64,000 nt of DNA from positions 18,811 to 82,810 of the forward strand of contig JAGVXT010000021.1 in NCBI GenBank assembly GCA_018303655.1, written 5' to 3'. Shown here in pieces: positions 353 to 56,970 of the stretch. Position 1 is the first letter of the stretch. The number at the start of each line of letters is the position of its first letter. The stretch is from Candidatus Woesearchaeota archaeon. GTDB lineage: Archaea > Nanobdellota > Nanobdellia > Woesearchaeales > GW2011-AR4. The notes under the pieces were generated by a model, which had not been told where the DNA came from, made no database searches, and saw nothing but the letters and a program-made list of their open reading frames with translations. Position numbers and translations under genes: made by a program.

Positions 353-2657
353 AAACTTAAAATTAATTTTAGTGTATTTGATCTTAATACTTATAGTCCC
401 ATCTATTTTCGCATTGACACTTCAAGAACTAATTGACTCTTACAATTTTGGATATAATGACGGCACACTTAATATTAATCAGTTTTCTGATTATATGTCA
501 GACTCAAACTCAAATGGACAGAATGATACTTTAATAATAAACATTACCGTTAACTCTACTTACACTGCTTTTTTTGAGGTTTATTTTGATTTGGCAGAAG
601 AAAGTGGAACTTTGTCCAGCAAGATTAATCAAAGCATATCTTCCGGTATATCGAACGTCAATATAAGCTTTGACACTCGCTTATTAAACAAAAATAAATA
701 CAATTATTCTGTGAGAATTTATAACACGACAAATATTTTAGTCTTTAGTAAATACAGCATAGAAACAAGCACCTATAGCGAATTTGAGAATGGAACGAAT
801 ATAAACAGCATAACTGACGAGAATGTAAATGGTAATTACATAAGGATTAATTTAACGCTCAATGTCTCCCAAAATCAAGACACTAATATAACTGCCTATT
901 TAAAATTTAATGAAACCATAATAAGTGCGACAAAACCAGTAACATTATCGTCTGGAACACAAATAGTTTCATTGGATTTTGATAATGAGACTATAAAATC
1001 CACTCATTATAATGGAAACTTCACTTTAGACTCTGTGTCAATAGGTAAAAAACTGATTAAGCCGAGCTATAGCACATCAACCTATAATTATGAAGATTTT
1101 GCAAAAACCTCTTACTTCAGAAACTACAGTAGCGCAGGCATTGATACCAATGCAAATAACTTGTCAGAATTCCTAGAAGTAAACTTTACTATAGCAGTTA
1201 AAAACACAACTACTTATGAAATACAAGCTGAAATATATGACCAATTCAACAATTTTGTCAAAAATCTATCCGCATCGCAAAGCTTGTCTATTGGAAATAA
1301 GACTCTAAGCATAAGGATAAATGGCTCTGACATCTATTCTACAAAAATAAGCGGGCCATATCTATTAAGTGTCGCAAGGCTAATAGAAAATGGAAATATT
1401 ACAGACAAGCAGTTTGAACCTCATACAATAACAAATTTAACCTATACAGATTTTGAGAGACCGCCTTTGCCGGACTTGAAATTGAATATGACTGTAATTT
1501 TCAACCAAACAACAAATCAGTCTAATGTTACAATAAAACTCAACAATACCGGAGAGTCAACAGCTTTTAATGTATTCCTTGATGTTTTTAACAATGAAAC
1601 TTTTTCAGCTATAAATAGTACTGTAATACTAAATGTCAACGAATCAAAAATTTATAATTTTATAGTAAGCAATACATCCAATACAACCCTGTTCACAGCC
1701 ATAGCAGACTTTGACAATCTGGTTGATGAAAGCAACGAAAGCAACAACATTGTGCAGAATACTCCTCCAACAGTTGTTTCTTTAGCTATAGAATCAATAA
1801 CCGCAATGTACACCAATGGAACATTAAAAATCTTTGAATTTGTAATTTTAAATGATGGCGATGCAACAGTTACAGATGTCCAATGGTGGTTTGACACGAA
1901 TGACAGCAATGTAATTAACAGCACCTCAAATACCAGCTTAAGCGCAGGAGAAAGGGCATTTGTTTACTTGCAATACAACTTCTCTGATCAAGGAAGCTAT
2001 AATGTGAAGGCAAATGCAACTGGATTAAGCCAATCAACTGCTGTATCTTCTTCCTTAAGCTCCACTGTAGGCGTGGGGGATTTGGCAATAACAAGCTTCA
2101 GCGCTTCTAACATTGCTGTAACCAATGTGATATTTGAAATACAGGCTCAAAATAATCTGCTGCAAAACCTAACAAACCTAAATTGGTCGTTAACAACAGC
2201 AGACGGGAGTATAATCAACTCAACTAGCCAATTCAGCTCGATACAGCCAAATGAGACTGTGTTTATATTTGTAAGCTATGACTATGGCAAGACTGGAACA
2301 TTCAGCCCGGTTGCTTCTGTTACAAATCAAACATATTCAGACTCAAAAAGCCTAACTTTAGACATAAAGCATATACAGGCTTATAACCTGACTGTTGCAA
2401 ACGAATCTGGCTCAAAAAGAATATTTGAGTTTATAATTAAAAATTCTTTAAATACAAACTTAACAAATACAAATTGGACATTTGACACTAAAAACAGCAA
2501 TGTCATAAATGCCACTTCAAACAGCATATTGCAGCCAAATGAGCAGATGTTTATTTACATAGACTATAACTTCACAGCAACAGGAACATTTAATGTTAAT
2601 GCAACAGCAAGGAATGGAACTTTAAGCGATTCAAGGAATCTGACAATAACAATATGA
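342..2657 (+). CDS. secreted Asn/Thr/Ser-rich surface protein with N-terminal signal/TM segment, CARDB-like repeat motifs and dozens of N-X-S/T sequons
   Basis: N-terminus MVFKNLKLILVYLILILIVPSIFA is hydrophobic. Repeated blocks end in ...DFDNLVDESNESNNIV... (CARDB-like). Composition is extremely rich in N, T and S, with many NxT/NxS sequons typical of N-glycosylated archaeal surface proteins. Confidence 0.6.
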   Translation: MVFKNLKLILVYLILILIVPSIFALTLQELIDSYNFGYNDGTLNINQFSDYMSDSNSNGQNDTLIINITVNSTYTAFFEVYFDLAEESGTLSSKINQSISSGISNVNISFDTRLLNKNKYNYSVRIYNTTNILVFSKYSIETSTYSEFENGTNINSITDENVNGNYIRINLTLNVSQNQDTNITAYLKFNETIISATKPVTLSSGTQIVSLDFDNETIKSTHYNGNFTLDSVSIGKKLIKPSYSTSTYNYEDFAKTSYFRNYSSAGIDTNANNLSEFLEVNFTIAVKNTTTYEIQAEIYDQFNNFVKNLSASQSLSIGNKTLSIRINGSDIYSTKISGPYLLSVARLIENGNITDKQFEPHTITNLTYTDFERPPLPDLKLNMTVIFNQTTNQSNVTIKLNNTGESTAFNVFLDVFNNETFSAINSTVILNVNESKIYNFIVSNTSNTTLFTAIADFDNLVDESNESNNIVQNTPPTVVSLAIESITAMYTNGTLKIFEFVILNDGDATVTDVQWWFDTNDSNVINSTSNTSLSAGERAFVYLQYNFSDQGSYNVKANATGLSQSTAVSSSLSSTVGVGDLAITSFSASNIAVTNVIFEIQAQNNLLQNLTNLNWSLTTADGSIINSTSQFSSIQPNETVFIFVSYDYGKTGTFSPVASVTNQTYSDSKSLTLDIKHIQAYNLTVANESGSKRIFEFIIKNSLNTNLTNTNWTFDTKNSNVINATSNSILQPNEQMFIYIDYNFTATGTFNVNATARNGTLSDSRNLTITI

Positions 2658-2686
2658 TCTGGCAGTAACTTTAAACTATAAGAATT

Positions 2687-3619
2687 TCATCCATAAAACA
2701 ACTCTTCTTTTCCAAGATTTTCCTTGTACCAATCATAAGCTCTTTTAACTCCTTCATGTATATTGACTTCCGGCTTCCATCCTAATGATTTTAATTTTTC
2801 AATTGAAGGGATTCTTGTCATGATTTCTCTTTCTTTTGTTCTTGTGTCCTTTCCAAAGCCGACAATTTTTGGCTTTAGGCTTTTGCCGGAGACTTTGATT
2901 ATTGATTCAGCAAGCTCTTTCATTGTAATCTGGTCTGTATTTGCTATGTTGTATGCTTCTCCTTTTGCGCCTTTTTTTCTGACTGTTTCAATTCCGCTAA
3001 CAACATCGGTAATGTAAGTGAAGCACCTTACCTGGCTTCCGTCTCCAAAAACAACAGGCGCTTCATTGTTCAAAACTTTTTGGATAAAAATTGGCATGAC
3101 CCATTCAAAGCCCTGCCCTGGGCCATAAACATTAAACAGCCTAACAGGATTTATGTCCATGCCATATTCCTGAACATAGCCTTTTGCATACATCTCTGCT
3201 GTTAGTTTTGAAACTCCATAGATGCTAACAGGGCTTTTTGGGCTGTCTTCTTTTATTGGTATTTCTCTTGGCTCGCCGTAAACTTCTGAAGAAGAGGTAT
3301 AAACAATCTTTTTCACATTTGTCCCAAGCGCGCACCTGAAGACGTTTACTGTGCCGTCTATGTTGACAGCCAGTGTGTTTAAAGGCTTTTTATCGGAATT
3401 GACTACTCCAAGCTCGGCAGCAAGATGATAAACAACATCACAATCTCTCATTTCCCATCTTATGTCTTCAAGCACGGACTTTTTTACAAATTCAAGCTTA
3501 GGATGTGTAAATTTAATCGGCTTAATATCAAGAACTTTAACATCATTTCCTTCATTAAGGAGATGCCTGACTAAGGTGTGCCCTATAAAGCCATTTCCTC
3601 CAGTGACCATTATTTTCAT
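2687..3619 (-). CDS. NAD-dependent epimerase/dehydratase (extended SDR; UDP-sugar 4-epimerase-like)
   Basis: N-terminal Rossmann motif VTGGNGFIGHTLVRHLL. YxxxK (YGVSKLTAEMYAKGY). Length 310 aa. Confidence 0.75.
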   Translation of the reverse strand: MKIMVTGGNGFIGHTLVRHLLNEGNDVKVLDIKPIKFTHPKLEFVKKSVLEDIRWEMRDCDVVYHLAAELGVVNSDKKPLNTLAVNIDGTVNVFRCALGTNVKKIVYTSSSEVYGEPREIPIKEDSPKSPVSIYGVSKLTAEMYAKGYVQEYGMDINPVRLFNVYGPGQGFEWVMPIFIQKVLNNEAPVVFGDGSQVRCFTYITDVVSGIETVRKKGAKGEAYNIANTDQITMKELAESIIKVSGKSLKPKIVGFGKDTRTKEREIMTRIPSIEKLKSLGWKPEVNIHEGVKRAYDWYKENLGKEELFYG

Positions 3620-3771: not shown

Positions 3772-4965
3772 ATGAAAATTATTCATTTAATGGGCTATTT
3801 TGTGCCTGAGCTAGGCTATCAAGAGTACTACTTGGCGAAGAAGCACAGGGAAATGGGGCATGATGTTTATGTAGTGGCTTCTGACATGCTTTATCCCTTC
3901 CCAAACATAGAAACAATGCTAAAGGAAGCTGGCATCAAAAACACATCAAGAAAAAGAAAGGCAGGTTTCAGCGTTATTGATGGCATCAAGGTCTGCAGGC
4001 TAAAGCATTTTTTTGAGTACTCTGACTTTATTTTGGCTAGGGGATTGAAGCAGGCTCTGGCTAAGATAAAGCCGGATGTAGTTTTTGCGCATGAGAGCAG
4101 GCAGGGCTTGCCTGCATTAGCCGCTTATTATAAAAAATTGTTCAATTACAGGCTTGTTGTAGACCAGCATGACTTCTACCACAAAATTCCCAGCCATCAC
4201 TGGTGGAAGAGACTTTTCAGGTTTTTGGATTATTTTCTGTTCAGGAAGTTTATTGTGAATTACAGCCTTAACAATGCGGACAGGATTGTTGCAGTAACCG
4301 AAGAGACAAAAGAATTCCTGGTAAATATCCATAAGATAGCGCCAAAAAATATTTTATTGATACCTTTGGCAGTTGACACTGGTTTTTTTAAGTTTGACAA
4401 CAAAGCAAAGACAAGCATAAGAAAAAAATTCAATATCAAGAAAGATGACATTGTTTTGGCTTTTTCCGGGACAATAGTAAGGAGAAAGGGCATAGAATTG
4501 CTGCTGGAAGCCGTGTCTGAAATAAAAAATGGAAACATAAAGCTGCTTATTGTTGGAGGAGGCGATAATATTTATATGCAGGAGCTGAAGAATTTAAGCA
4601 AAAAGCTTGGAATTGAAAATAGGACTGTATTTACAGGATTTGTAAAAAAAGATTATGTTAAGGATTATTTTTCTGCAGCTGACATCGGAGTGTGGCCAGG
4701 AAACAACTCCGTAAGCATAATGGAGGCAATGGCATGCAATCTTCCAATAGTGATTGTGGATCTGCAGTTAAGCTATTTGGCAAGCTACAATAACGGCTTG
4801 AAATTTCCAGAGCACAATAAGGAAAAACTAAAGGCAGCATTAAAAAAACTCATTGGAAATAAAAATTTAAGATTAAAAATGGCCAATAATTCTGCATCTG
4901 CAATAAAAAGATATTATAGCTATGATGCGATTGCAGGGGAATTTTTGAATGCAGCTAAAGGCTGA
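3772..4965 (+). CDS. glycosyltransferase family 4 (GT-B, retaining)
   Basis: C-terminal GT4 signature ...GFVKKDYVKDYFSAADIGVWPG...EAMACNLPIV. Confidence 0.75.
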   Translation: MKIIHLMGYFVPELGYQEYYLAKKHREMGHDVYVVASDMLYPFPNIETMLKEAGIKNTSRKRKAGFSVIDGIKVCRLKHFFEYSDFILARGLKQALAKIKPDVVFAHESRQGLPALAAYYKKLFNYRLVVDQHDFYHKIPSHHWWKRLFRFLDYFLFRKFIVNYSLNNADRIVAVTEETKEFLVNIHKIAPKNILLIPLAVDTGFFKFDNKAKTSIRKKFNIKKDDIVLAFSGTIVRRKGIELLLEAVSEIKNGNIKLLIVGGGDNIYMQELKNLSKKLGIENRTVFTGFVKKDYVKDYFSAADIGVWPGNNSVSIMEAMACNLPIVIVDLQLSYLASYNNGLKFPEHNKEKLKAALKKLIGNKNLRLKMANNSASAIKRYYSYDAIAGEFLNAAKG

Positions 4966-6025
4966 ATTTTTTAAGTATATTGACAATATTCCTGCTCGCA
5001 TTTCCATTCCCGTAATTCTCGCTTTGCTTTCCTTTTGGATTAAAATTCCTTACTGCATACCTTATCTTTGCTTTATTTGCTCCTGCAAGAATGTTCCAGC
5101 CGTCATTCACTGTCTCCGTCCATTCTGTCGAGTCTCTCAAAGTGATGCATGGAACTTTGAAAAAATAGGCTTCTTTCTGCATCCCTCCTGAATCAGTAAT
5201 TATTTTTTTTGCGTTTTTCTCAAGAATTAAAGTATCAGCGTAGCTTAACGGCTTTGTTACAATTATGTTTGAATTTTTAAGCTTTTTATCCAGATTGTAC
5301 AGCTTAAGGCATTTTGCCGTTCTGGGATGGACCGGAAAAACAATTTTTTCGCCGATGCTGAGCAGGGCACCCATTATATTGGACAAGTTCTCCTTAATGT
5401 CCGTGTTTCCCGCACGATGCACTGTTGCAAGCAGATAGGATTTTTTGTTGAGCTTTAATTTCCCCAAAATCCTGGAATTTTTTTCAGCAATGCCGATGTT
5501 CCGCTTTATAGAGTCTATCATAACATCCCCTACTTTAAATACATTTTTTGTAATCCTTTCTTTTTTCAGGTTTTGGACAGCTGTCCATGTTGGGCAGAAC
5601 AGTATATCAGAAACTCTGTCTGTCTCTACTCTGTTGATCTCTTCAGGCATGGACTTGTTAAAGCTTCTCATCCCTGATTCAATATGGGCAATCTTGATTC
5701 CAGATTTTGATGCTGCCATTGCCCCTGCCAAAGTCGAGTTTGTGTCTCCAAAAACAATGACCAAGCTTGGCTTTTCCTTCAGAATAATCCGGCACAGGCC
5801 ATCAATCATTTTTTTGATTTGCTTGCTGCGCTCCGCTGACCCAACGCCAAGGTTATAATCCGGCTCCGGTATCCTCATGTTCTTAAAGAAAATTTTGGAC
5901 ATTTCATAATCATAATGCTGCCCGGTGTGGACTACAACTTCATCAAAGTGCTTTCTTATTTCGTGAGATAAAACAGCCAGCTTGATAAACTGCGGTCTTG
6001 CGCCGACAACGCTGAGAATCTTCAT
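4955..6025 (-). CDS. wecB: UDP-N-acetylglucosamine 2-epimerase (non-hydrolysing)
   Basis: MKILSVVGARPQFIKLAVLSHEI...HTGQHYDYEMSKIFF matches the WecB/MnaA N-terminal signature (GxRPxxIKxAP, HTGQHYD). Confidence 0.85.
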   Translation of the reverse strand: MKILSVVGARPQFIKLAVLSHEIRKHFDEVVVHTGQHYDYEMSKIFFKNMRIPEPDYNLGVGSAERSKQIKKMIDGLCRIILKEKPSLVIVFGDTNSTLAGAMAASKSGIKIAHIESGMRSFNKSMPEEINRVETDRVSDILFCPTWTAVQNLKKERITKNVFKVGDVMIDSIKRNIGIAEKNSRILGKLKLNKKSYLLATVHRAGNTDIKENLSNIMGALLSIGEKIVFPVHPRTAKCLKLYNLDKKLKNSNIIVTKPLSYADTLILEKNAKKIITDSGGMQKEAYFFKVPCITLRDSTEWTETVNDGWNILAGANKAKIRYAVRNFNPKGKQSENYGNGNASRNIVNILKKFSL

Positions 6026-19007: not shown

Positions 19008-19850
19008 TTATAAAAACTTTACTGGCATAATAAAGACTAGTTGAAGATAATCTCTAAAACATAAAATTGTATTGTGGGCGATAGCCCTACAATACATCTC
19101 GGCTCTTTGAGACTTCATATTCAAAGAGCTGACGCTAGTTCCAAATTTTCTTTTGATGGAAAAAATCACAGATTCAGCCATGCTTCTCCTATTGTAAACT
19201 CTTTTCTTAAAATTTTTCAAAACTTTATGCCTTACAAAACCTCTGAAGGCATTCTTTCTTACTTTGACGACTGGGGCAATTCCATTGTCCCACAAAAATT
19301 CATAGAATTTCTCTGAATCGTATGCAGAATCTGCAACTAATTTGCAAGGAAATCTTGCGAACCTTTTAACCAAATATTCTGCATCTTTGATGTCATGCGA
19401 TTTTCTTGCTCTTGTCCTAAGAGCAAGAATTCTCTTGCTTCTTGTGTCAACAGCAAGAGAAATTTTTATGGGAATGTCGACGGGATATGGCTTGTCAATC
19501 CTTTTATAATAGTAAGGGCTTGGCAAAGTCCTTGACATGCCTGTTGAGTCAATCGCAGCAATCTTAACTTTCATGCTTGCTGTGGCAGCAAGCAAAGTTT
19601 GCCAAATTTCAATTGGCATTCTGTAAGCAAACTTTGCTAAGGCAGAATAAGTTGGAACTTTAAGTCCCAAATCGTTTAGCAGATTGCTTGTTCTCCTGAA
19701 ACTCAACTTACATTCTTGCTTTACAAGTAAAGCAATAACATGCTGCCAAAGCTCGTAAGTCTTTGGCCCGAATTTATTTAAATGTCTGGGCAGTTTTGCT
19801 TTCCTTAGCAAACGCTTAACTTTATTTTCTAGTCTTTTTTCCTTTTTCAT
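19008..19850 (-). CDS. IS4/IS5-family DDE transposase
   Basis: N-terminal HTH. DDE region ...KLVADSAYDSE.... Canonical Y(2)R(3)E(6)K signature VYNRRSMAESVIFSIKRK. Likely start is the ATG at 19848-19850; the ORF track extends to a GTG at 19862. Confidence 0.85.
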   Translation of the reverse strand: MKKEKRLENKVKRLLRKAKLPRHLNKFGPKTYELWQHVIALLVKQECKLSFRRTSNLLNDLGLKVPTYSALAKFAYRMPIEIWQTLLAATASMKVKIAAIDSTGMSRTLPSPYYYKRIDKPYPVDIPIKISLAVDTRSKRILALRTRARKSHDIKDAEYLVKRFARFPCKLVADSAYDSEKFYEFLWDNGIAPVVKVRKNAFRGFVRHKVLKNFKKRVYNRRSMAESVIFSIKRKFGTSVSSLNMKSQRAEMYCRAIAHNTILCFRDYLQLVFIMPVKFL

Positions 19851-19870
19851 GGTGGGGTGCACTCCCCACC
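19851..19870 (-). promoter_or_regulatory. perfect 7-bp stem hairpin GGTGGGG-TGCACT-CCCCACC immediately 5' of the transposase ATG (likely translational occlusion of the start/RBS)
   Basis: Seen directly in the sequence. A second hairpin AGCAGCC-TAAC-GGCTGCT follows at about 19872-19893. Confidence 0.5.
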
Positions 19871-28908: not shown

Positions 28909-29943
28909 TTAATCTAAATTTTCTACCTTCCTTAATTTTTTAAGGATTGGGATCTCTGACTCGTAAATTCTTTTTTTCCCATCCCCCAGATATAAGGGCA
29001 TCAATCTTGCCACCTCGCAAATGATCTCTATGCCTTTTCTTTCCAGGCTTGCAGACTGGTCGCTTCCGAACATGGATCTGTCCAGAGTTATATGGCGCTC
29101 TACCATGCAAGCTCCCAATGCTATGGCAATCAAAACCGGGTACACCCCTGGCTCATGGCCGCTGTAGCCAACAGGGCAATTGAAGAATTTCCTGAAGGTT
29201 TTTATGACATTTAAGTTATGCTCATTTGGCGGAGTGGGGTATGTTGAAGTGCAGTGCATGATGATTAGATTATTTTCCCCTAAAATATTTACAGCCTTTT
29301 GTATCTGCTCCATTGTGCTCATCCCAGTAGACAATATAATTGGCTTGTTGGTTGATTTTACTTTCATTAAAAGTTTTTTATTAGTCAGCATTGCTGATGC
29401 AATCTTATGGCATGACACATCAAATTTTTCCAGAAAATCAATGCTTTCTTCATCCCAGGCAGATGCAAACCAGATGATATTTTTTTTCCTGCAGTACTCA
29501 TCAATTTCCTTGTATTCATCATAGCCAAATTCTAATGCGCGCTTCAAGTCACCATTGGTTTTGCCAAAAGGGCTTTCTCTGGACATTTCCAGTTCTTCTT
29601 TTGGGTAAACTTTCTCAATAGTCCTCTTTTGAAATTTTACCGCATCACATCCGGATTCAGCTGCAATATCAATCAATTTTTTGCAAATTTCCATGTTTCC
29701 ATTATGGTTTATTCCAATTTCAGCTGTGATAAAAACTGGTTGGTCATGACCCACAAGCTTGCTTCCAATCATAACAGGCTTAGGGTTTCTTTCTTCGAGA
29801 TACATCTTCTCATAAATTTTCCAAGCCTGGGAAATTGCCTGAGTTTTGTTGGGGATAATCCCCTGGCTGTTGTTCACTAATTCAGTAATTTTTCTATTTA
29901 ACTCTTCTGGAATTGTTATTGACTCATATCCTTCTTTTGGCAT
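28909..29943 (-). CDS. neuB: NeuB-family PEP-condensing nonulosonate/ulosonate synthase with N-terminal RHH-like extension and no C-terminal SAF domain
   Basis: ITAEIGINHNGNMEICKKLIDIAAESGCDAVKFQK...ILSTGMS...HCTSTYPTP...VGYSGHE is the NeuB TIM barrel. The about 60 N-terminal residues SITIPEELNRKITELVNNSQGIIPNKTQAISQAWKIY fit a beta-alpha-alpha ribbon-helix-helix pattern. The protein ends right after the barrel. Confidence 0.8.
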   Translation of the reverse strand: MPKEGYESITIPEELNRKITELVNNSQGIIPNKTQAISQAWKIYEKMYLEERNPKPVMIGSKLVGHDQPVFITAEIGINHNGNMEICKKLIDIAAESGCDAVKFQKRTIEKVYPKEELEMSRESPFGKTNGDLKRALEFGYDEYKEIDEYCRKKNIIWFASAWDEESIDFLEKFDVSCHKIASAMLTNKKLLMKVKSTNKPIILSTGMSTMEQIQKAVNILGENNLIIMHCTSTYPTPPNEHNLNVIKTFRKFFNCPVGYSGHEPGVYPVLIAIALGACMVERHITLDRSMFGSDQSASLERKGIEIICEVARLMPLYLGDGKKRIYESEIPILKKLRKVENLD

Positions 29944-29965: not shown

Positions 29966-30025
29966 GTACGGTACGTATATTTAAATATATCTGTTTTTTA
30001 GAGAAATTCTGTAAAAGTACCGTAC
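29966..30025. promoter_or_regulatory. inverted repeat GTACGGTACG ...(41 bp)... (A)GTACCGTAC flanking a palindromic TATA-like box (TATATTTAAATATA) in the neuB / methyltransferase divergent promoter
   Basis: Seen directly. The arms are GC-rich in an AT-rich intergenic region. The left arm lies about 23 bp upstream of the neuB start codon. Confidence 0.45.
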
Positions 30026-51582: not shown

Positions 51583-52986
51583 ATGAAAGTATTGCTTATA
51601 CTGCCTCCAAATATAGGAAGGTATGTTGTTGCTACAGTCCCGCATGCCGGCCTTGCTTATCTTGCAGCTATTTTGGAAAGGGATGGCCATCAGGTTGAAA
51701 TACATGACATGAGGATTTATTCTGATGACAGGCTTTTGGCAAAAAAGATTGAAAGCTTCAAGCCAAGGCTTATAGGCCTTTCAACAGCAAGCATCGGGTA
51801 TAAGATGTCTTATGAAATAATCAACACGATAAAGAAAAAATACCCGAATATCCCATTGGCCATCGGTGGGTCATACGCTTCCACGGTTCACACAAAAGTT
51901 TTGGAGGATACTAAAGCAGATTATGCTGTTTATGGGGAAGGGGAACAAACCTTTTTGGACTTGGCAAAAGGAATTGCTCCGAGCAAAATAAAGGGGCTTA
52001 TCTGGAGGGATAACGGGGAGATTATAATGAATCCGCCTTATCCGCTTGTGCAGGATCTTGACAGCATGCCTTTTCCAAAATATGAGAAATTTGAATTAAG
52101 CAAGATGCTTGAGAAAAGGATTCCAATAGTAAGCTCAAGAGGATGCCCGAACAGGTGCACTTTTTGCTCCATACAGCTTGTCATGGGATATCCGTTCAGG
52201 ACCCGAAGCCCTGAAAATGTCTTGAAGGAAATTGAATACTGGTATAAGAAAGGCTACGACACATTTGAGTTCAGCGATGATAATTTCACCTTCAACATGC
52301 CGAGGGCAGAAAAGATATGCGACTTAATAATAGAAAGCGGCATGAAAATAAAGATAATTTTTGGCAATGGCTTGAGGGCTGACAGGGTTAACGCAAATCT
52401 GCTTAAAAAATTAAGGGAAGCAGGATGCATCTGGATAGGCTACGGGCTTGAGACTTCTGATTTGCACAGCCTGGAGCTGTTGAAGAAAGATTTGGATGTA
52501 AACCAGCTGAAATGGGCTGTCAAGGAGTCAAAAAAGCTGGGAATTGAAGTGCAGGTCCATAACATAATCGGAACGCCTGGGTCAACATTTGACACTTTTA
52601 TGAAAGACATTAAGCTTGCGGATGACTTGGGCATTGACCAAGTAAGATTCTTTAACATGATTCCGTACCCCGGAACTGAGATGTTTGAATGGGTAAAGCA
52701 GAATGGCAGGTTTTTGCACCAGCCTGATGAATATCTGAACAGCCTGGATTACTGGGCTGAAGAGCCTGTTTTTGAGACAGATGACTTCACAAGAGAAGAA
52801 AGAATCAAAGCTTTCCGCATAGGCCAGGACAAGGTTATGGAGCTTCATTTAAGAAGGCACTTTGGCAAGGGCTTGGGAAGAATGGGCTTTAAATTATACA
52901 AGAACAGCCTGATAAAAAAGTATGGCATGAAGCCGGCTACAAAAGCTTGGATTATGCTCAAAAGATTAAGAATAAAGCAGCATTAA
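51583..52986 (+). CDS. cobalamin-binding (class B) radical SAM protein
   Basis: [10 protein letters not shown]...[23 protein letters not shown]. Confidence 0.8.
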
Positions 52987-53924
52987 TCCTGATTTTTATT
53001 ATATTTAAAAAAATCTATAGTTTTTCTCAAGCCTTCTTTTAACTCGATTTTCGGCTCCCATTTCAGCATTTTTTTTGCCCTTGATATGTCAGGGCATCTT
53101 ACATGCGGATCATCTATTGGCAATGGCCTGAAAACAATTTTGCTCCTGCTTTTTGTAAGCTCTTTTATTAATTCAGCAAACTCGAGAATGGTGTGTTCTT
53201 CGGGATTTCCAAGATTGACAGGCTCGCTTATGTTTGAAAGCATTAAATTGTATATGCCCTCAACCAGATCGTTCACATAGCAGAAGCTTCTTGTCTGGTT
53301 ACCTTTTCCATAAACGGTCATCGGTTCGTTTTTTAATGCCTGCGTTATGAAGTTCGGCACAACCCTTCCGTCATTTTTTCTCATCCTTGGGCCATAAGTG
53401 TTGAAAATCCTGACAATTTTTGTGTCAAGTTGGTGTATCCTATGGTAGGCCATTGTAAGCGCTTCCGCAAACCTTTTGGCTTCGTCATAGCATCCCCTTA
53501 TTCCAATGGGGTTGACATTGCCCCAGTAAGTTTCAGGCTGCGGATTTACCAGTGGATCGCCGTAAACCTCTGATGTTGAGGCAAGCACATACTTTGATTT
53601 TTTAGCCAATGCCAATCCAAGAGTGTTATGTGTGCCAAGGCTTCCAACCTTTAATGTCTGTATAGGTATTTTCTGGTAGTCAATCGGGGATGCAGGCGAT
53701 GCAAAGTGCAGCACAAAATCAAGCTTTTCATTGACAACAATATGCTTGCTTACATCATGGTAAATATAAGTAAAATCTTTGCTGCTTCTCAAGTGGCTTA
53801 TGTTGCTTATGCCGCCTGTTGCAAGATTGTCCATGGCGATTACCTTGTATCCTTTGCCTAAAAGAAACTCGCAAATGTGGCTTCCGATAAATCCTGCTCC
53901 TCCTGTTATTAATGCTGTTTTCAT
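52983..53924 (-). CDS. UDP-glucuronate decarboxylase (UDP-xylose synthase)-like NAD-dependent epimerase/dehydratase
   Basis: [22 protein letters not shown]...STSEVYGDP...YDEAKR is the UXS/ArnA-type signature. Confidence 0.75.
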
Positions 53925-54655
53925 TTTTGCTTGTAATATCTGTTTGCCTTTTCCAGCTGCTCAATGCTTCCTATATCATACCATTTCTTATCTGTAACAA
54001 AGGAATGCACCTGCTCCCTTTTGTGAAGCCATTCTATGAAATTGCCGGTTTTGTCAGGGTTGTTACCCTGCTCAATGTATTTTTTTATTAAGGGTATTGT
54101 CTTCTTTGGGAACAGATAAATTCCTGTTGAAGCAAGTGTTGATTTTGGGGCAACAGGCTTTTCCTCAAAATTCACGATGATGCCATTATCTATATCAACA
54201 ATTCCATAATGCTTCGCTAATTTAATGTCCTTTACATCATAAAGGACGATAACATTTGATTTTTTCTTTTTGAAGAAATTGGCAGCATCCTCTAAGGGCA
54301 TCTCAAAAAGGTTGTCGCCTGCAACCACTATGATATCATTGTCAAGGTTTTTTTTGGTGATGGTGTGGTGTATGTCGCCCAAAGCGCCAAGCCTGTCTTC
54401 ATTGCTTTTGGTGCCGTCGTTTATTATTTCAATCGGGTTTTCTGCATTAAAATTGTTGATCCATTTTTTGAAATGCTGCTCGAATTTGTCGTTTGTGACA
54501 ATGTAGATTTTATTGATTGAATCTATCTTGCTTAATTTTTTTATTATATGTTCTATTATGGGCTTTCCTGCAACATTCAGCAACGGCTTTGGAGTGTTTT
54601 CTGTCAGGGGATACAGCCTTGTTGCATATCCTGCTGCCAATATTATCGCGTCCAT
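53921..54655 (-). CDS. sugar-phosphate nucleotidyltransferase (short RmlA/GalU-like)
   Basis: [26 protein letters not shown] is the G-x-G-T-R-L...K-P signature. Confidence 0.75.
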
Positions 54656-55957
54656 TTAGTGCACTTCCTTTCTTCCAATGCTGATGTACGTGAAGCCATC
54701 ATTTTTCATGTCTTCTAGCCTATAAATGTTCCTACCGTCAATGATTAATGGATGCTTCATCAGGGATTTTATTCTTTTCATATCAATTTCTTTGAACTCG
54801 TCCCATTCCGTGACTATGACAAGAGCGTCTGCATCTTTTGCGGCGTCGTAAGTGTTGCTGCAATATTCAATATTTTTCAGTATGCCTTTTGATTTTTCCA
54901 TTGCCTTCGGATCATATGCCTTTATTTTTGCCCCTTCTTTCTGCAACTCTGTTATGATGTCAACAGAAGGCGCGAATCTCATGTCATCAGTGTTTGGCTT
55001 GAATGCCAGCCCCAGAATGCCGATTGTCTTGCCCTTTACAATCCACAATGCCTTTTCTATCTTGCTTACAAAATGATTTCTTTGATTATTGTTTATTTCC
55101 TGAACTGCCTTGAGCAGACTGAAATCATATCCGAATTTTTCTGATATCCTTATGAATGCTTCTGCATCCTTTGGAAAGCAAAAGCCCCCATATCCAATTC
55201 CTGCGTCAAGGAAGCTTCTTCCGATTCTTTTGTCATAGCCCATTCCTTCCGCCACTTTTTCGACATCAGCACCTGCTGCCTCGCAGATGCTTGCTATTGC
55301 ATTTATGAAGGATATTTTTGCTGCAAGAAATGAGTTTGATGCGTGCTTTATGATTTCAGCGCTTTTTATGTCTGTGAATATGATTGGAGCCTTTAATGGT
55401 GAGTACAGTTTTTTCATTATATCTTTTGCCCTTTCGCTTTCGCACCCAATCACTATCCTGTCAGGATGCATGAAGTCATTGACAGCGCTTCCTTCCCTCA
55501 AAAATTCGGGATTGCTGACAACATCAAAATCAACTTTGTGCGCATTGTAGCTTTTTATTGACTTTGCAATTTTATCCCCCGTTTCAACAGGCACGGTGCT
55601 TTTCTCAACAATTATCTTGTAAGAGTCCATTACATCCGCAATAGTTCTTGCAACGTCTTCAACGTAGCTCAAATCAGCTTCCCCATTCTTCTTTGGAGGA
55701 GTGCCTACGCAGATGAATATTATATCTGATTCTTTTATTGATTTTTTAAGGTCTGTTGTGAAGCTTATTTTTCCTTTTTTCCTGTTTTTTATTAATAACT
55801 CCTCCAAACCGGGCTCAAAGATTGGAATAATATTGTTATTCAGATTCTTTATCTTGTCCTCTTCTATATCAACGCAGACAACATCGTTTCCAAGCTCTGC
55901 AAAGCAAGCCCCCGTGACCAAGCCAACATAGCCTGCTCCCACAACTGCAATTTTCAT
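54656..55957 (-). CDS. ugd: UDP-glucose 6-dehydrogenase
   Basis: MKIAVVGAGYVGLVTGACFAELGNDV. GGFCFPKD catalytic Cys motif. 433 aa. Confidence 0.85.
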   Translation of the reverse strand: MKIAVVGAGYVGLVTGACFAELGNDVVCVDIEEDKIKNLNNNIIPIFEPGLEELLIKNRKKGKISFTTDLKKSIKESDIIFICVGTPPKKNGEADLSYVEDVARTIADVMDSYKIIVEKSTVPVETGDKIAKSIKSYNAHKVDFDVVSNPEFLREGSAVNDFMHPDRIVIGCESERAKDIMKKLYSPLKAPIIFTDIKSAEIIKHASNSFLAAKISFINAIASICEAAGADVEKVAEGMGYDKRIGRSFLDAGIGYGGFCFPKDAEAFIRISEKFGYDFSLLKAVQEINNNQRNHFVSKIEKALWIVKGKTIGILGLAFKPNTDDMRFAPSVDIITELQKEGAKIKAYDPKAMEKSKGILKNIEYCSNTYDAAKDADALVIVTEWDEFKEIDMKRIKSLMKHPLIIDGRNIYRLEDMKNDGFTYISIGRKEVH

Positions 55958-56021
55958 ATAGCTTTAGAACAGAAACATATTTAAATATCTTACCATTATC
56001 CTACTTTATCATACCTTTAAA

Positions 56022-56822
56022 ATGCCTAAAACTAAAATATCCATAACCATCAATGGGAAGACTTTGCAGGACATAGATTCTATCATTGACAATATATATA
56101 TTCGCAACAGAAGTCAAGCTATAGAGCACCTTGCGAAGAACGCTTTGGGAGAGAACAAGGCTGCTGTTATTCTACTTGGGGGCAATGACGGGCATTTAAG
56201 AATCTCAAAGGAAGATTACAGGCCGACTGCAAGAATAAAAAATAATTCTGTTATAGAACTGGGGCTGAAAAAGCTGAGGGAAAACAATTTCAAGACTGTG
56301 TTCATTGTCGCAAGGCATAATTTATTGACAAAATTGTTTGAAATGCTGAAAGACGGCACAAACTATGGCGTAAAAATAAATTATATTGAAGAAAAATCCT
56401 CCAATGGCACTGCAGATTCTTTGAGGCTGTTAAAAGGAAGGGTTAATGCCAATTTCCTTGTTGTTTACGGCGATTTAATCTTTAACAAGATAAACATTGA
56501 GGAATTGTGGAATGACCACATAAAGCAGAATGCAATTGCAACAATAATGCTTACAACATCTTCAAAGCCAAGCGAAAAAGGAACTGTAAGGGTTGAGGGC
56601 AATAAAGTACTTGCCTTTACGCAAAAGCCTAAAAAATCCGATATTTACCTTGTGTTTTCCCCTATATTTGTTGCAGAGCCCCAGATTTTTGAGTACTCCG
56701 GAGCCAGCCTGGAATTCAATGTTTTTCCTGAACTGGCTGACAAAGGGCTTTTGAACGGACATTTGAGTTCCGAGAAAGAGGTACACATTCATACAAAAAG
56801 AGACGTTGAGAATTTAAAATAA
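56022..56822 (+). CDS. NTP-transferase-fold (sugar nucleotidyltransferase-like) protein with N-terminal RHH-like domain
   Basis: Core: ...AAVILLGGNDG...GTADSLRLL...FLVVYGDLIF. The pyrophosphorylase signature is divergent. The N-terminal about 45 aa KISITINGKTLQDIDSIIDNIYIRNRSQAIEHLAKNAL fit a ribbon-helix-helix pattern. Confidence 0.5.
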   Translation: MPKTKISITINGKTLQDIDSIIDNIYIRNRSQAIEHLAKNALGENKAAVILLGGNDGHLRISKEDYRPTARIKNNSVIELGLKKLRENNFKTVFIVARHNLLTKLFEMLKDGTNYGVKINYIEEKSSNGTADSLRLLKGRVNANFLVVYGDLIFNKINIEELWNDHIKQNAIATIMLTTSSKPSEKGTVRVEGNKVLAFTQKPKKSDIYLVFSPIFVAEPQIFEYSGASLEFNVFPELADKGLLNGHLSSEKEVHIHTKRDVENLK

Positions 56823-56862
56823 GGTGGACAGCTTTTCCAGTTTCCCACACATAAGTGAAGTA

Positions 56863-56970
56863 CTGCTGGAAACGGAGGCTTGCTTAACTTCCGTGAACCC
56901 GGAAAGTGCTTGGTGCACATCCTTTCGGGATGGGAACGGGTGAACCAAGCCCCTATGACCGTCCAAGCAG
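56863..56970 (+). ncRNA. candidate structured ncRNA within a GC-rich island (56823-56975); class unknown
   Basis: About 52% GC in a roughly 33% GC genome. Closing helix CUGCUGG/CCAAGCAG. Hairpin ACGGAGG-9nt-CUUCCGU. Hairpin CCCGGAA...UUUCGGG enclosing GUGC-UUGGU-GCAC. Hairpin GGA(A)CGG...CCGUCC. Loop-loop complementarity GCUUGGU (56908-14) / ACCAAGC (56944-50). Strand is uncertain. Confidence 0.35.

Follow-up and report, generated by a model that had tools for sequence, protein, structure and literature searches.

The Candidatus Woesearchaeota belong to the DPANN archaea, which are uncultured and have tiny genomes. To our knowledge, almost nothing is known about gene regulation in this group. 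Here we address a 64,000-nucleotide stretch of DNA from one such archaeon (NCBI GenBank assembly GCA_018303655.1, contig JAGVXT010000021.1), hereafter referred to as the window, and the gene at 56022..56822 within it, whose product we call by the working name REG. This locus raises the question of why a protein with the core of a sugar nucleotidyltransferase should begin with what resembles a DNA-binding domain. The original prediction was that REG and a second sugar-pathway protein of the window represent a family of metabolite-sensing one-component regulators built on enzyme scaffolds. Our results indicate that REG is probably a one-component ribbon-helix-helix (RHH) regulator with a pseudo-enzyme sensor, which would control its own gene and an adjacent operon for UDP-sugar synthesis.

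Results

The RHH head

The predicted open reading frame was found at exactly the expected position, with both peptides quoted for it. The gene and the parts of its product discussed below are as follows:

56022..56822, + strand: REG gene (open reading frame), an RHH plus nucleotidylyltransferase-like protein of 266 residues
56022..56156, + strand: RHH head, residues 1-45 (family profile, RHH_1 matches, structure model)
56157..56819, + strand: sugar-1-phosphate nucleotidylyltransferase-like body, residues 46-266 (PF00483, Foldseek)
56178..56222, + strand: signature loop in degenerate form, residues 53-67 (GGNDGHLRISKEDYR), where GGxGTRLxPLTxxxPK is expected (alignment with RmlA 3hl3)

REG is a real gene under strong constraint, because a word-indexed search returned 799 homologues and the best of these are highly identical (72-100% identity among the best 120, of which 119 reach at least 81%). 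The entry that is 100% identical comes from a Candidatus Woesearchaeota (DPANN) archaeon and is listed as 'hypothetical protein J4234_04355'. Moreover, an exhaustive HMMER scan of 1.84 billion representatives of 50% identity clusters gave 5163 matches. Among the best 150 of them, about 120 are full-length (235-300 residues) and aligned from query residue 1-5, and hence about 120 clusters share the head. REG relatives are annotated only as 'hypothetical' or 'NDP-sugar pyrophosphorylase', and none of the precomputed Pfam matches of the relatives listed is an RHH domain. Existing annotation therefore misses the head, and the family has been invisible as a regulator.

Judged from sequence profiles and the structure model, residues 1-45 belong to the RHH (CopG/Arc/MetJ/NikR) superfamily. 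They comprise a strand (K5-I10), helix A (12-20) and helix B (30-42), the latter with an N29-R30-S31 cap. When 65 diverse N-termini of the family were combined into a head profile, the RHH domain of Escherichia coli NikR (1q5v) was matched with E=1.6e-10 and all 45 residues aligned, followed by Pyrococcus horikoshii NikR 2bj1 (E=7e-7), the RHH antitoxin Rv0298 (E=1.7e-4) and CopG (E=4e-3); HicB3 was matched as well. When the 65 heads were scanned singly against Pfam RHH_1, 59 gave a match with E<=1 and 35 one with E<=1e-3 (best, 8e-11). For the window protein, Pfam gave no RHH match with either the full sequence or the 46-residue head alone, the NCBIfam NikR models aligned to residues 4-47 only (E=0.006-0.02), and 2bj1 scored E=0.45. 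The RHH-like N-terminus originally proposed is thus significant at the level of the family profile and weak for the window protein alone.

The AlphaFold2 monomer model of REG, built on 50 homologues (pLDDT 91, pTM 0.83), shows residues 1-11 extended and unpaired, helices at 12-20 and 30-42, and then the body strand 46-52. With its first 11 residues unpaired and the Rossmann-like sheet starting only at residue 46, the head contributes no strand to the body. An N-terminus built into that sheet had been set beforehand as the outcome that would speak against an RHH head, and the model does not show it. In the 173 sequences of the close subfamily, the mean consensus fraction is highest in the head (0.90), followed by the body (0.86), and lowest in the signature loop (0.66). 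K-I-S-I-T-I, the strand that would contact DNA, does not vary within this subfamily but does so in the wider family. From the sequence evidence we strongly infer that the head would bind DNA in a sequence-specific manner at repeated elements.

The nucleotidylyltransferase-like body

Pfam NTP_transferase (PF00483) matches residues 48-226 of REG (E=4.7e-21; 75.9 bits for a cut-off of 21.2). In agreement with this, the solved structures closest to the model in Foldseek (E~1e-18, TM 0.70-0.74) are the Arabidopsis GDP-mannose pyrophosphorylase VTC1 (7x8j), tlr0611 (8x7s) and RmlA (4ecm/3hl3/1fxo), with further matches to MurU and to the human GMPPA/GMPPB complex (7d72 and 7d74). These results substantiate the sugar-nucleotidyltransferase-like core proposed for REG. 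With RmlA, GalU, AglF and GMPP (PF00483), REG shares the fold, the motif order and the nucleotide and sugar contacts; unlike them, it has lost GxGTRL, the Lys, the Glu of EKP and the second metal Asp, and carries an extra RHH head. All 16 NCBIfam enzyme models scored far under their cut-offs with REG, the best being Arch_glmU (71.9 versus 292 bits).

The 173 close-subfamily sequences were aligned together with four members of the family whose motifs are canonical, and positions were assigned through RmlA 3hl3. Among the conserved residues, G53, G54 and G187 are kept in 173/173 sequences, as is E124, a base contact, whereas the chemistry residues are changed. The G129-T-A motif is found at 169, 155 and 167 of 173, and both D151, the first metal Asp, and K202 at 172/173. 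The signature of the window protein reads GGNDGHLR where GGxGTRL is expected, a divergence that had been correctly noted, and in the subfamily the second Gly of GxGTR (position 56) is Glu or Asp in 167/173 (E154/D13). The catalytic Arg position (58) is occupied by H67/R36/N32/K12/S9/D6, and the catalytic Lys position (67) by R154/S12/K4 as well as by A, M or C. EKP has become QKP in 171 of the 173 sequences, and the Gly of NAGIY is Pro in 161. W-x-D-x-G is replaced by E-x-H-x-H, with an invariant H255 in place of the second metal Asp. In other branches of the family, the signature loop is deleted outright. In short, REG lacks the G-x-G-[TS]-R-[LM] signature, the PKP Lys and the second metal Asp of an active nucleotidylyltransferase, the basic residue at the Lys position not being decisive.

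These changes at the signature Gly, Arg, Lys, EKP and W-x-D positions of the 173 sequences agree with the altered or lost pyrophosphorylase function that had been suggested. Since the nucleotide and sugar contacts are kept while the residues for chemistry are changed, REG can be read as a pseudo-enzyme sensor: its body has probably retained ligand contacts and lost phosphoryl-transfer chemistry. Of note, four His residues (H166, H247, H255 and H257) are invariant or nearly so in the subfamily, and two of them, H255 and H257, occupy the place of the W-x-D-x-G metal-site motif of canonical relatives. The four could form a metal or ligand site.

Close relatives of REG occur in 205 species (one genome per species), all labelled Woesearchaeota, Nanoarchaeota or similar DPANN bins. 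Farther away, the members P0271 and P0273 (33-39% identity to REG) lie in operons that include phosphohexomutases and GlmU-like enzymes, so the link to nucleotide-sugar synthesis spans the whole family; one distant member, from Candidatus Gugararchaeum, is labelled AglF. Sugar genes were not found near two members at 45-53% identity. Because the catalytic motifs of P0271 and P0273 are fully canonical, the ancestral state may have been an active enzyme with a DNA-binding head. One Nanoarchaeota contig (L009) carries two family members, at 2602-3375 and 4261-5109. Facing a UXS-like gene, one of them has an operator of the Woesearchaeota type; the catalytic motifs of the other are canonical, and it stands first in a phosphohexomutase/GlmU-like operon. 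This pair suggests that the two paralogues divide the work, one as sensor and the other as enzyme. A search of phage records with REG returned only weak matches to the body domain, which are irrelevant here.

The strongest competing explanation is that REG is a bifunctional trigger enzyme, that is, an active nucleotidylyltransferase, perhaps with unusual substrates, that also binds DNA through its head as PutA does. Residual or altered catalysis is possible because position 67 is mostly Arg and D151 and K202 are retained; the GG and GTA motifs are retained too. In addition, P0271, P0272 and P0273 combine an RHH head with full canonical motifs in biosynthetic operons, and in a NeuB-family synthase encoded elsewhere in the window the catalytic domain that follows a probable RHH head is conserved. 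However, an active REG is hard to reconcile with a signature loop that is the least conserved segment of the subfamily, acidic at its second Gly and deleted in other members, with an Arg position open to H, R, N, K, S or D, or with the changes of the second metal Asp to an invariant His and of EKP to QKP. Neither the scores with the NCBIfam enzyme models nor the canonical enzyme encoded in the adjacent operon favour it. On balance, we consider a trigger enzyme unlikely and prefer the pseudo-enzyme regulator.

A conserved block upstream of REG

The intergenic DNA between REG and its divergent neighbour, ugd, contains a near-invariant block of 35 bp, which we regard as a candidate operator:

54656..55957, - strand: ugd, which codes for UDP-glucose 6-dehydrogenase, read divergently from REG and its probable target (all three Pfam UDPG_MGDP_dh domains, N, central and C; NCBIfam TuaD, 618 bits)
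55980..56014, + strand: near-invariant 35-bp block, TTTAAATATCTTACCATTATCCTACTTTATCATAC, candidate operator over a shared promoter (cross-species conservation)
55980..55987: TTTAAATA, resembling a TATA box, at 23-30 bp from the ugd ATG (spacing across loci)
55986..55993, + strand: direct repeat 1, TATCTTAC
55997..56004, + strand: direct repeat 2, TATCCTAC, 11 bp past repeat 1
56007..56014, + strand: direct repeat 3, TATCATAC (TATnCkAy across species), 10 bp past repeat 2; its positions +20 to +27 are conserved outside the search pattern

Aligned ugd-REG spacers give the consensus T[TA]TAAATATCTTACCnTTATCCTACyTTATnCkAy, with three repeats of the TATCnTAC type. As their starts are 11 and 10 bp apart, the repeats lie on one face of the helix. 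The block was located with ATCTTACCnTTATCCTAC as the only probe, allowing up to 3 mismatches, and was found in 75 of 80 species loci, with one copy in each and on the REG strand every time. The 7 positions before and the 10 after the probe carry about 2 bits each, and those beyond about 0. The block remains invariant while the identity of REG drops from 93% to 58% and that of ugd to about 40-50%, and while the flanks become unalignable. No second copy occurs in the window when 3 mismatches are allowed, and the tandem repeat pair is likewise present only once there, with 0.01 copies expected by chance. In public metagenome contigs, the core was matched 130 times, 87 of them with the full block; 85 of these 87 copies adjoin REG and/or ugd, and 62 adjoin both. 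The same scan revealed no further targets that would indicate a wider regulon, the 43 core-only matches being satellites or chance matches in unrelated DNA. Rfam detected no known RNA in the ugd-REG intergenic region. The block was not found in the neuB promoter of the window, which had been suggested for a binding test.

The position of the block suggests how it could act on both genes. In most loci, 30-31 bp separate the start of the block from the ugd start codon, which puts the TATA box 23-30 bp from the ATG. Archaeal promoters have an established distance of about 26 bp between the centre of the TATA box and the start site, so that the ugd transcript is predicted to be leaderless, with the TFB-recognition element (BRE) overlapping repeat 1. 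Towards REG, the distance from the block start to the start codon is 29-39 bp (35 bp in the window) or else exactly 58 bp, and the 58-bp loci have a second TATA-like element, TTTATATA, after repeat 3. Thus, the repeats are either sandwiched between two divergent core promoters or overlap one shared promoter, and a protein bound to them would affect both promoters.

Where ugd and REG are separated, some loci keep the block 30 bp from ugd and have inserts of 150-1100 bp before REG. Conversely, the block lies 58 bp from REG without an adjacent ugd in L046, L053, L055, L063, L064, L066 and L089, and in L007 (53% identity, no sugar genes) a block, TATAAATATCCTACCTTTATCCTACTTTAT, is found 80 bp upstream of REG. 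Since the block is thus tied to REG itself, these loci favour REG as the protein that binds there and point to autoregulation. Moreover, related repeats of the TATCnTAC type occur upstream of family members at 32-53% identity, including the following:

L014, P0272 (32% identity to REG): upstream element TATCATACTTTATCATAC
L012, P0307 (45% identity to REG): upstream element TATATATCTTACCTTTATACTACCTTATCCGATA
L009, second paralogue (41% identity to REG): upstream element GTCTTACCTTTATCCTACTTTGTAGG
L009, P0273 (33% identity to REG): upstream element GTATTACGTTGTATTACGTT, which abuts the start codon

Alternatively, the block might be only a strong bidirectional core promoter or the site of another factor, with REG binding elsewhere or using its head to oligomerise or to bind the neighbouring pyrophosphorylase in a GMPPA-like manner. 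The TATA box at a fixed distance from the ugd start fits such a promoter, and an inactive paralogue that regulates a catalytic one is known (GMPPA type). However, conservation extends 27 bp past the TATA box in the form of three phased repeats, and the block keeps its 58-bp distance to REG in loci without adjacent ugd and is present in L007. The similar repeats of distant members stand in other gene contexts, and the K-I-S-I-T-I strand is invariant in the same genomes in which the block is invariant. For these reasons, we find this explanation improbable, and the block is better read as an operator of REG.

Two other candidates in this region were discarded. An 18-bp imperfect palindrome at 55974-55991 (AACATATTT/AAATATCTT) was rejected as operator because its left arm is unconserved (positions -13 to -8 carry <0.6 bit), and a scan for sigma-70 promoters and terminators was set aside as inapplicable to an archaeon. 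We also observed inserts of 150-450 bp between the block and the REG start in L016-L018, L020, L028, L032, L034 and L088. They contain short perfect hairpins (e.g., GGAACTTTTT/AAAAAGTTCC) and sequence common to different species, the distance from ugd to the block still being 30 bp. Rfam identified no known RNA in these inserts, which may be miniature mobile elements.

Genomic neighbourhood

Two further genes follow ugd on the reverse strand:

53921..54655, - strand: canonical sugar-1-phosphate nucleotidylyltransferase (AglF-like, UGPase-like) with intact signature (Pfam, sequence)
52983..53924, - strand: UDP-glucuronate decarboxylase, or UDP-xylose synthase (human UXS1 4gll/2b69, E=3.6e-106)

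The three genes divergent from REG make up the pathway from glucose-1-phosphate to UDP-xylose. As the canonical nucleotidylyltransferase is encoded only 1.4 kb from REG, REG is not needed for that enzymatic step, and because the pairwise similarity of the two proteins is insignificant (E=0.34), REG is not a recent duplicate of this enzyme. Among the 77 species loci whose upstream sequence is long enough, 63 have a divergent ugd no more than 450 bp from REG (median spacer, 94 bp), and in 9 others it lies within 2.5 kb. Genes for the canonical nucleotidylyltransferase and for UDP-xylose synthase are also found near REG in most loci.

This synteny bears on the idea that REG is a fused type II toxin-antitoxin-like module, composed of an RHH antitoxin and a nucleotidyltransferase toxin: RHH domains are common in antitoxins and the head profile also matches Rv0298 and HicB3. 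However, the body has the PF00483/RmlA/GMPP fold rather than that of a Pol-beta-type toxin. REG occurs as a single copy, its synteny holds across 205 species and it is linked to ugd; moreover, no partner gene is present. On the grounds of fold and synteny we reject this reading, to which we give next to no credence.

Downstream, a 5S rRNA gene (56823-56966, - strand; Rfam, 55.7 bits) begins 1 base past the REG stop codon in convergent orientation, an arrangement also seen in L016, L020 and L034. The 5S rRNA match is 144 nt long in the window as well as in L016 and L017, for a model of 120 positions, which suggests an insertion. Most of the window is filled by a large glycosylation island, in the middle of which an open reading frame of 284 residues (19008-19862, - strand) may, from its sequence alone, encode a transposase.

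An RHH-headed NeuB in the same window

The fusion that the original prediction had listed first, on a NeuB-family protein, was analysed in the same way:

28909..29943, - strand: NeuB-family synthase whose residues 1-50 are probably an RHH head (Pfam, profiles, model)
29966-29974 and 30017-30025: two GTACSGTAC palindromes flanking a TATA-like element, upstream of neuB (sequence scan)

Pfam NeuB covers residues 89-323 of this protein. The 50-residue head is common to 56 long DPANN homologues, and there are NeuB homologues of about 290 residues without it, one of them from the bacterium Candidatus Staskawiczbacteria. The best solved structure for the NeuB head profile is CopG, aligned over the full RHH length with a non-significant E=0.17, and RHH_1 is matched by 5 of 38 heads (best, 1.3e-4). 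Compared profile to profile with hhalign, the NeuB and REG heads are related with 95.7% probability, and in the model of the NeuB protein an unpaired strand is followed by two helices. These profiles and the model indicate that the NeuB head is probably a second RHH head.

The two GTACSGTAC palindromes are the only matches to this motif in the window, where 0.02 are expected by chance, and the pair is also present upstream of neuB in L215, L216 and L217 (58-70% identity). The NeuB fusion is therefore probably real, with a candidate operator of its own. Since its catalytic domain looks intact, NeuB would be an enzyme with a DNA-binding head and not a pure sensor. In L216, the RHH-NeuB gene is immediately preceded by that of another RHH plus nucleotidylyltransferase-like paralogue (645-1397), which lacks the signature loop and has AGTAATACT repeats upstream. 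The same element is present in the neuB promoter of L217, and GTATTAC, the reverse complement of its core GTAATAC, is found in tandem upstream of P0273 in L009.

Discussion

In this study, we examined a gene whose product joins a DNA-binding head to the fold of a nucleotide-sugar enzyme. The mechanism that we favour would operate as follows. REG would dimerise through its RHH domain, and several dimers would occupy the three TATCnTAC repeats, which follow each other at intervals of one helical turn next to the TATA box in the spacer shared with the divergent ugd operon. Bound REG would then control its own promoter and the UDP-glucuronate/UDP-xylose operon, by either hindering or assisting TBP, TFB and RNA polymerase. 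The body, descended from a sugar-1-phosphate nucleotidylyltransferase, would sense a nucleotide sugar or its precursors (NTP/sugar-1-phosphate), and binding of this ligand would set the DNA affinity or the oligomeric state of REG. In this way, REG would exert feedback on its own gene and on the synthesis of UDP-glucuronate and UDP-xylose, by either repression or activation. Going by the operon, our best guess for the ligand is a UDP-sugar from the neighbouring pathway. In other organisms, UDP-xylose is a feedback inhibitor of UDP-glucose dehydrogenases.

Several observations weigh against this mechanism. The RHH assignment is not significant for the window protein by itself. The catalytic Lys position holds a basic residue, mostly Arg, with D151 and K202 kept, and the distant members P0271 and P0273 have canonical catalytic motifs. 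All family sequences derive from metagenomes. The block was not found in L037, L050, L075 and L093 among the 80 species loci (the copy in L093 is degenerate); the fifth locus with no match, L071, has no upstream DNA. Moreover, as the block includes the TATA box, its conservation is in part due to promoter function, and a different factor could bind the repeats.

Parts of the proposed design have precedents in well-known systems. NikR is the best sequence match of the REG head, the two have the NRS(E/Q)AI helix-B cap in common, and NikR also places an N-terminal RHH domain and a C-terminal ligand domain on one polypeptide, as proposed here for REG. Nevertheless, the NikR sensor is an ACT-like metal-binding domain of about 80 residues, whereas that of REG is a nucleotidylyltransferase fold of 220 residues; the NikR models, confined to residues 4-47 of REG, find no C-terminal ACT-like domain in it. 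NikR binds two inverted half-sites, in contrast to the three direct repeats of the candidate REG operator. In PutA, an RHH head is attached to proline dehydrogenase/P5C dehydrogenase and regulates its own pathway from a divergent promoter region. REG resembles it in the RHH head on a metabolic enzyme scaffold and in its place near a divergent promoter of the same pathway. The enzyme domains of PutA are fully active and its switch is redox- and membrane-driven, whereas the REG body looks catalytically degenerate; the enzyme family and the organisms also differ, and REG has no proline-catabolic domains.

The precedent for the body is GMPPA, a non-catalytic paralogue of GDP-mannose pyrophosphorylase that binds GDP-mannose and regulates GMPPB (PMC11228364), and thus an inactive nucleotidylyltransferase fold that serves as nucleotide-sugar sensor. 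GMPPA acts allosterically on GMPPB and has a C-terminal left-handed beta-helix, whereas REG has a DNA-binding head and a proposed transcriptional output; Pfam gave no Hexapep/LbH beta-helix match in REG, which ends at residue 266. On the other hand, the archaeal RHH regulators CdrS and CdrL consist of RHH alone or of RHH and a double zinc ribbon and have been reported absent from DPANN archaea (PMC7439475). Given their different architecture, we discarded them as relatives of REG. By its sequence, REG is a member of the RHH superfamily in its head and of PF00483 in its fold, and not of NikR, PutA or GMPPA. We did not find this RHH plus nucleotidylyltransferase-like architecture described in the literature.

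The broader proposal of a family of enzyme-scaffold regulators is supported, to the extent that computation allows. The shared architecture, the upstream repeats and the probable NeuB head speak for it, with the caveat that NeuB and some distant members keep their catalytic motifs and would thus be enzymes with a DNA-binding head, not pure sensors. More tentatively, and as a possibility that we hold with less than even confidence, DPANN archaea may have repeatedly capped nucleotide-sugar enzymes with RHH heads, giving rise to a class of enzyme-scaffold regulators that ranges from active, autoregulating enzymes to pure sensors and reads its own nucleotide-sugar pool. At the active end would stand the RHH-NeuB proteins with their GTACSGTAC sites and the RHH-pyrophosphorylases with canonical motifs in phosphohexomutase operons; at the sensor end, the Woesearchaeota subfamily with its decayed catalytic loop and four-His cluster.

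Altogether, the REG family is most likely a previously unrecognised and widespread family of DPANN regulators with a candidate operator defined to the base. Our analysis supplies the protein, a 35-bp candidate operator, a target operon (UDP-glucose to UDP-glucuronate to UDP-xylose) and candidate ligands. Annotating genes of the REG type as pyrophosphorylases distorts metabolic reconstructions of glycan synthesis in these archaea. The family also offers a possible series from intact enzyme to pseudo-enzyme sensor on one scaffold, which bears on the enzyme origin of the ligand domains of transcription factors. If the proposed class is true, each of its types would directly set the transcription of surface-glycan genes, and this would be a main regulatory logic in organisms where few transcription factors are recognisable.

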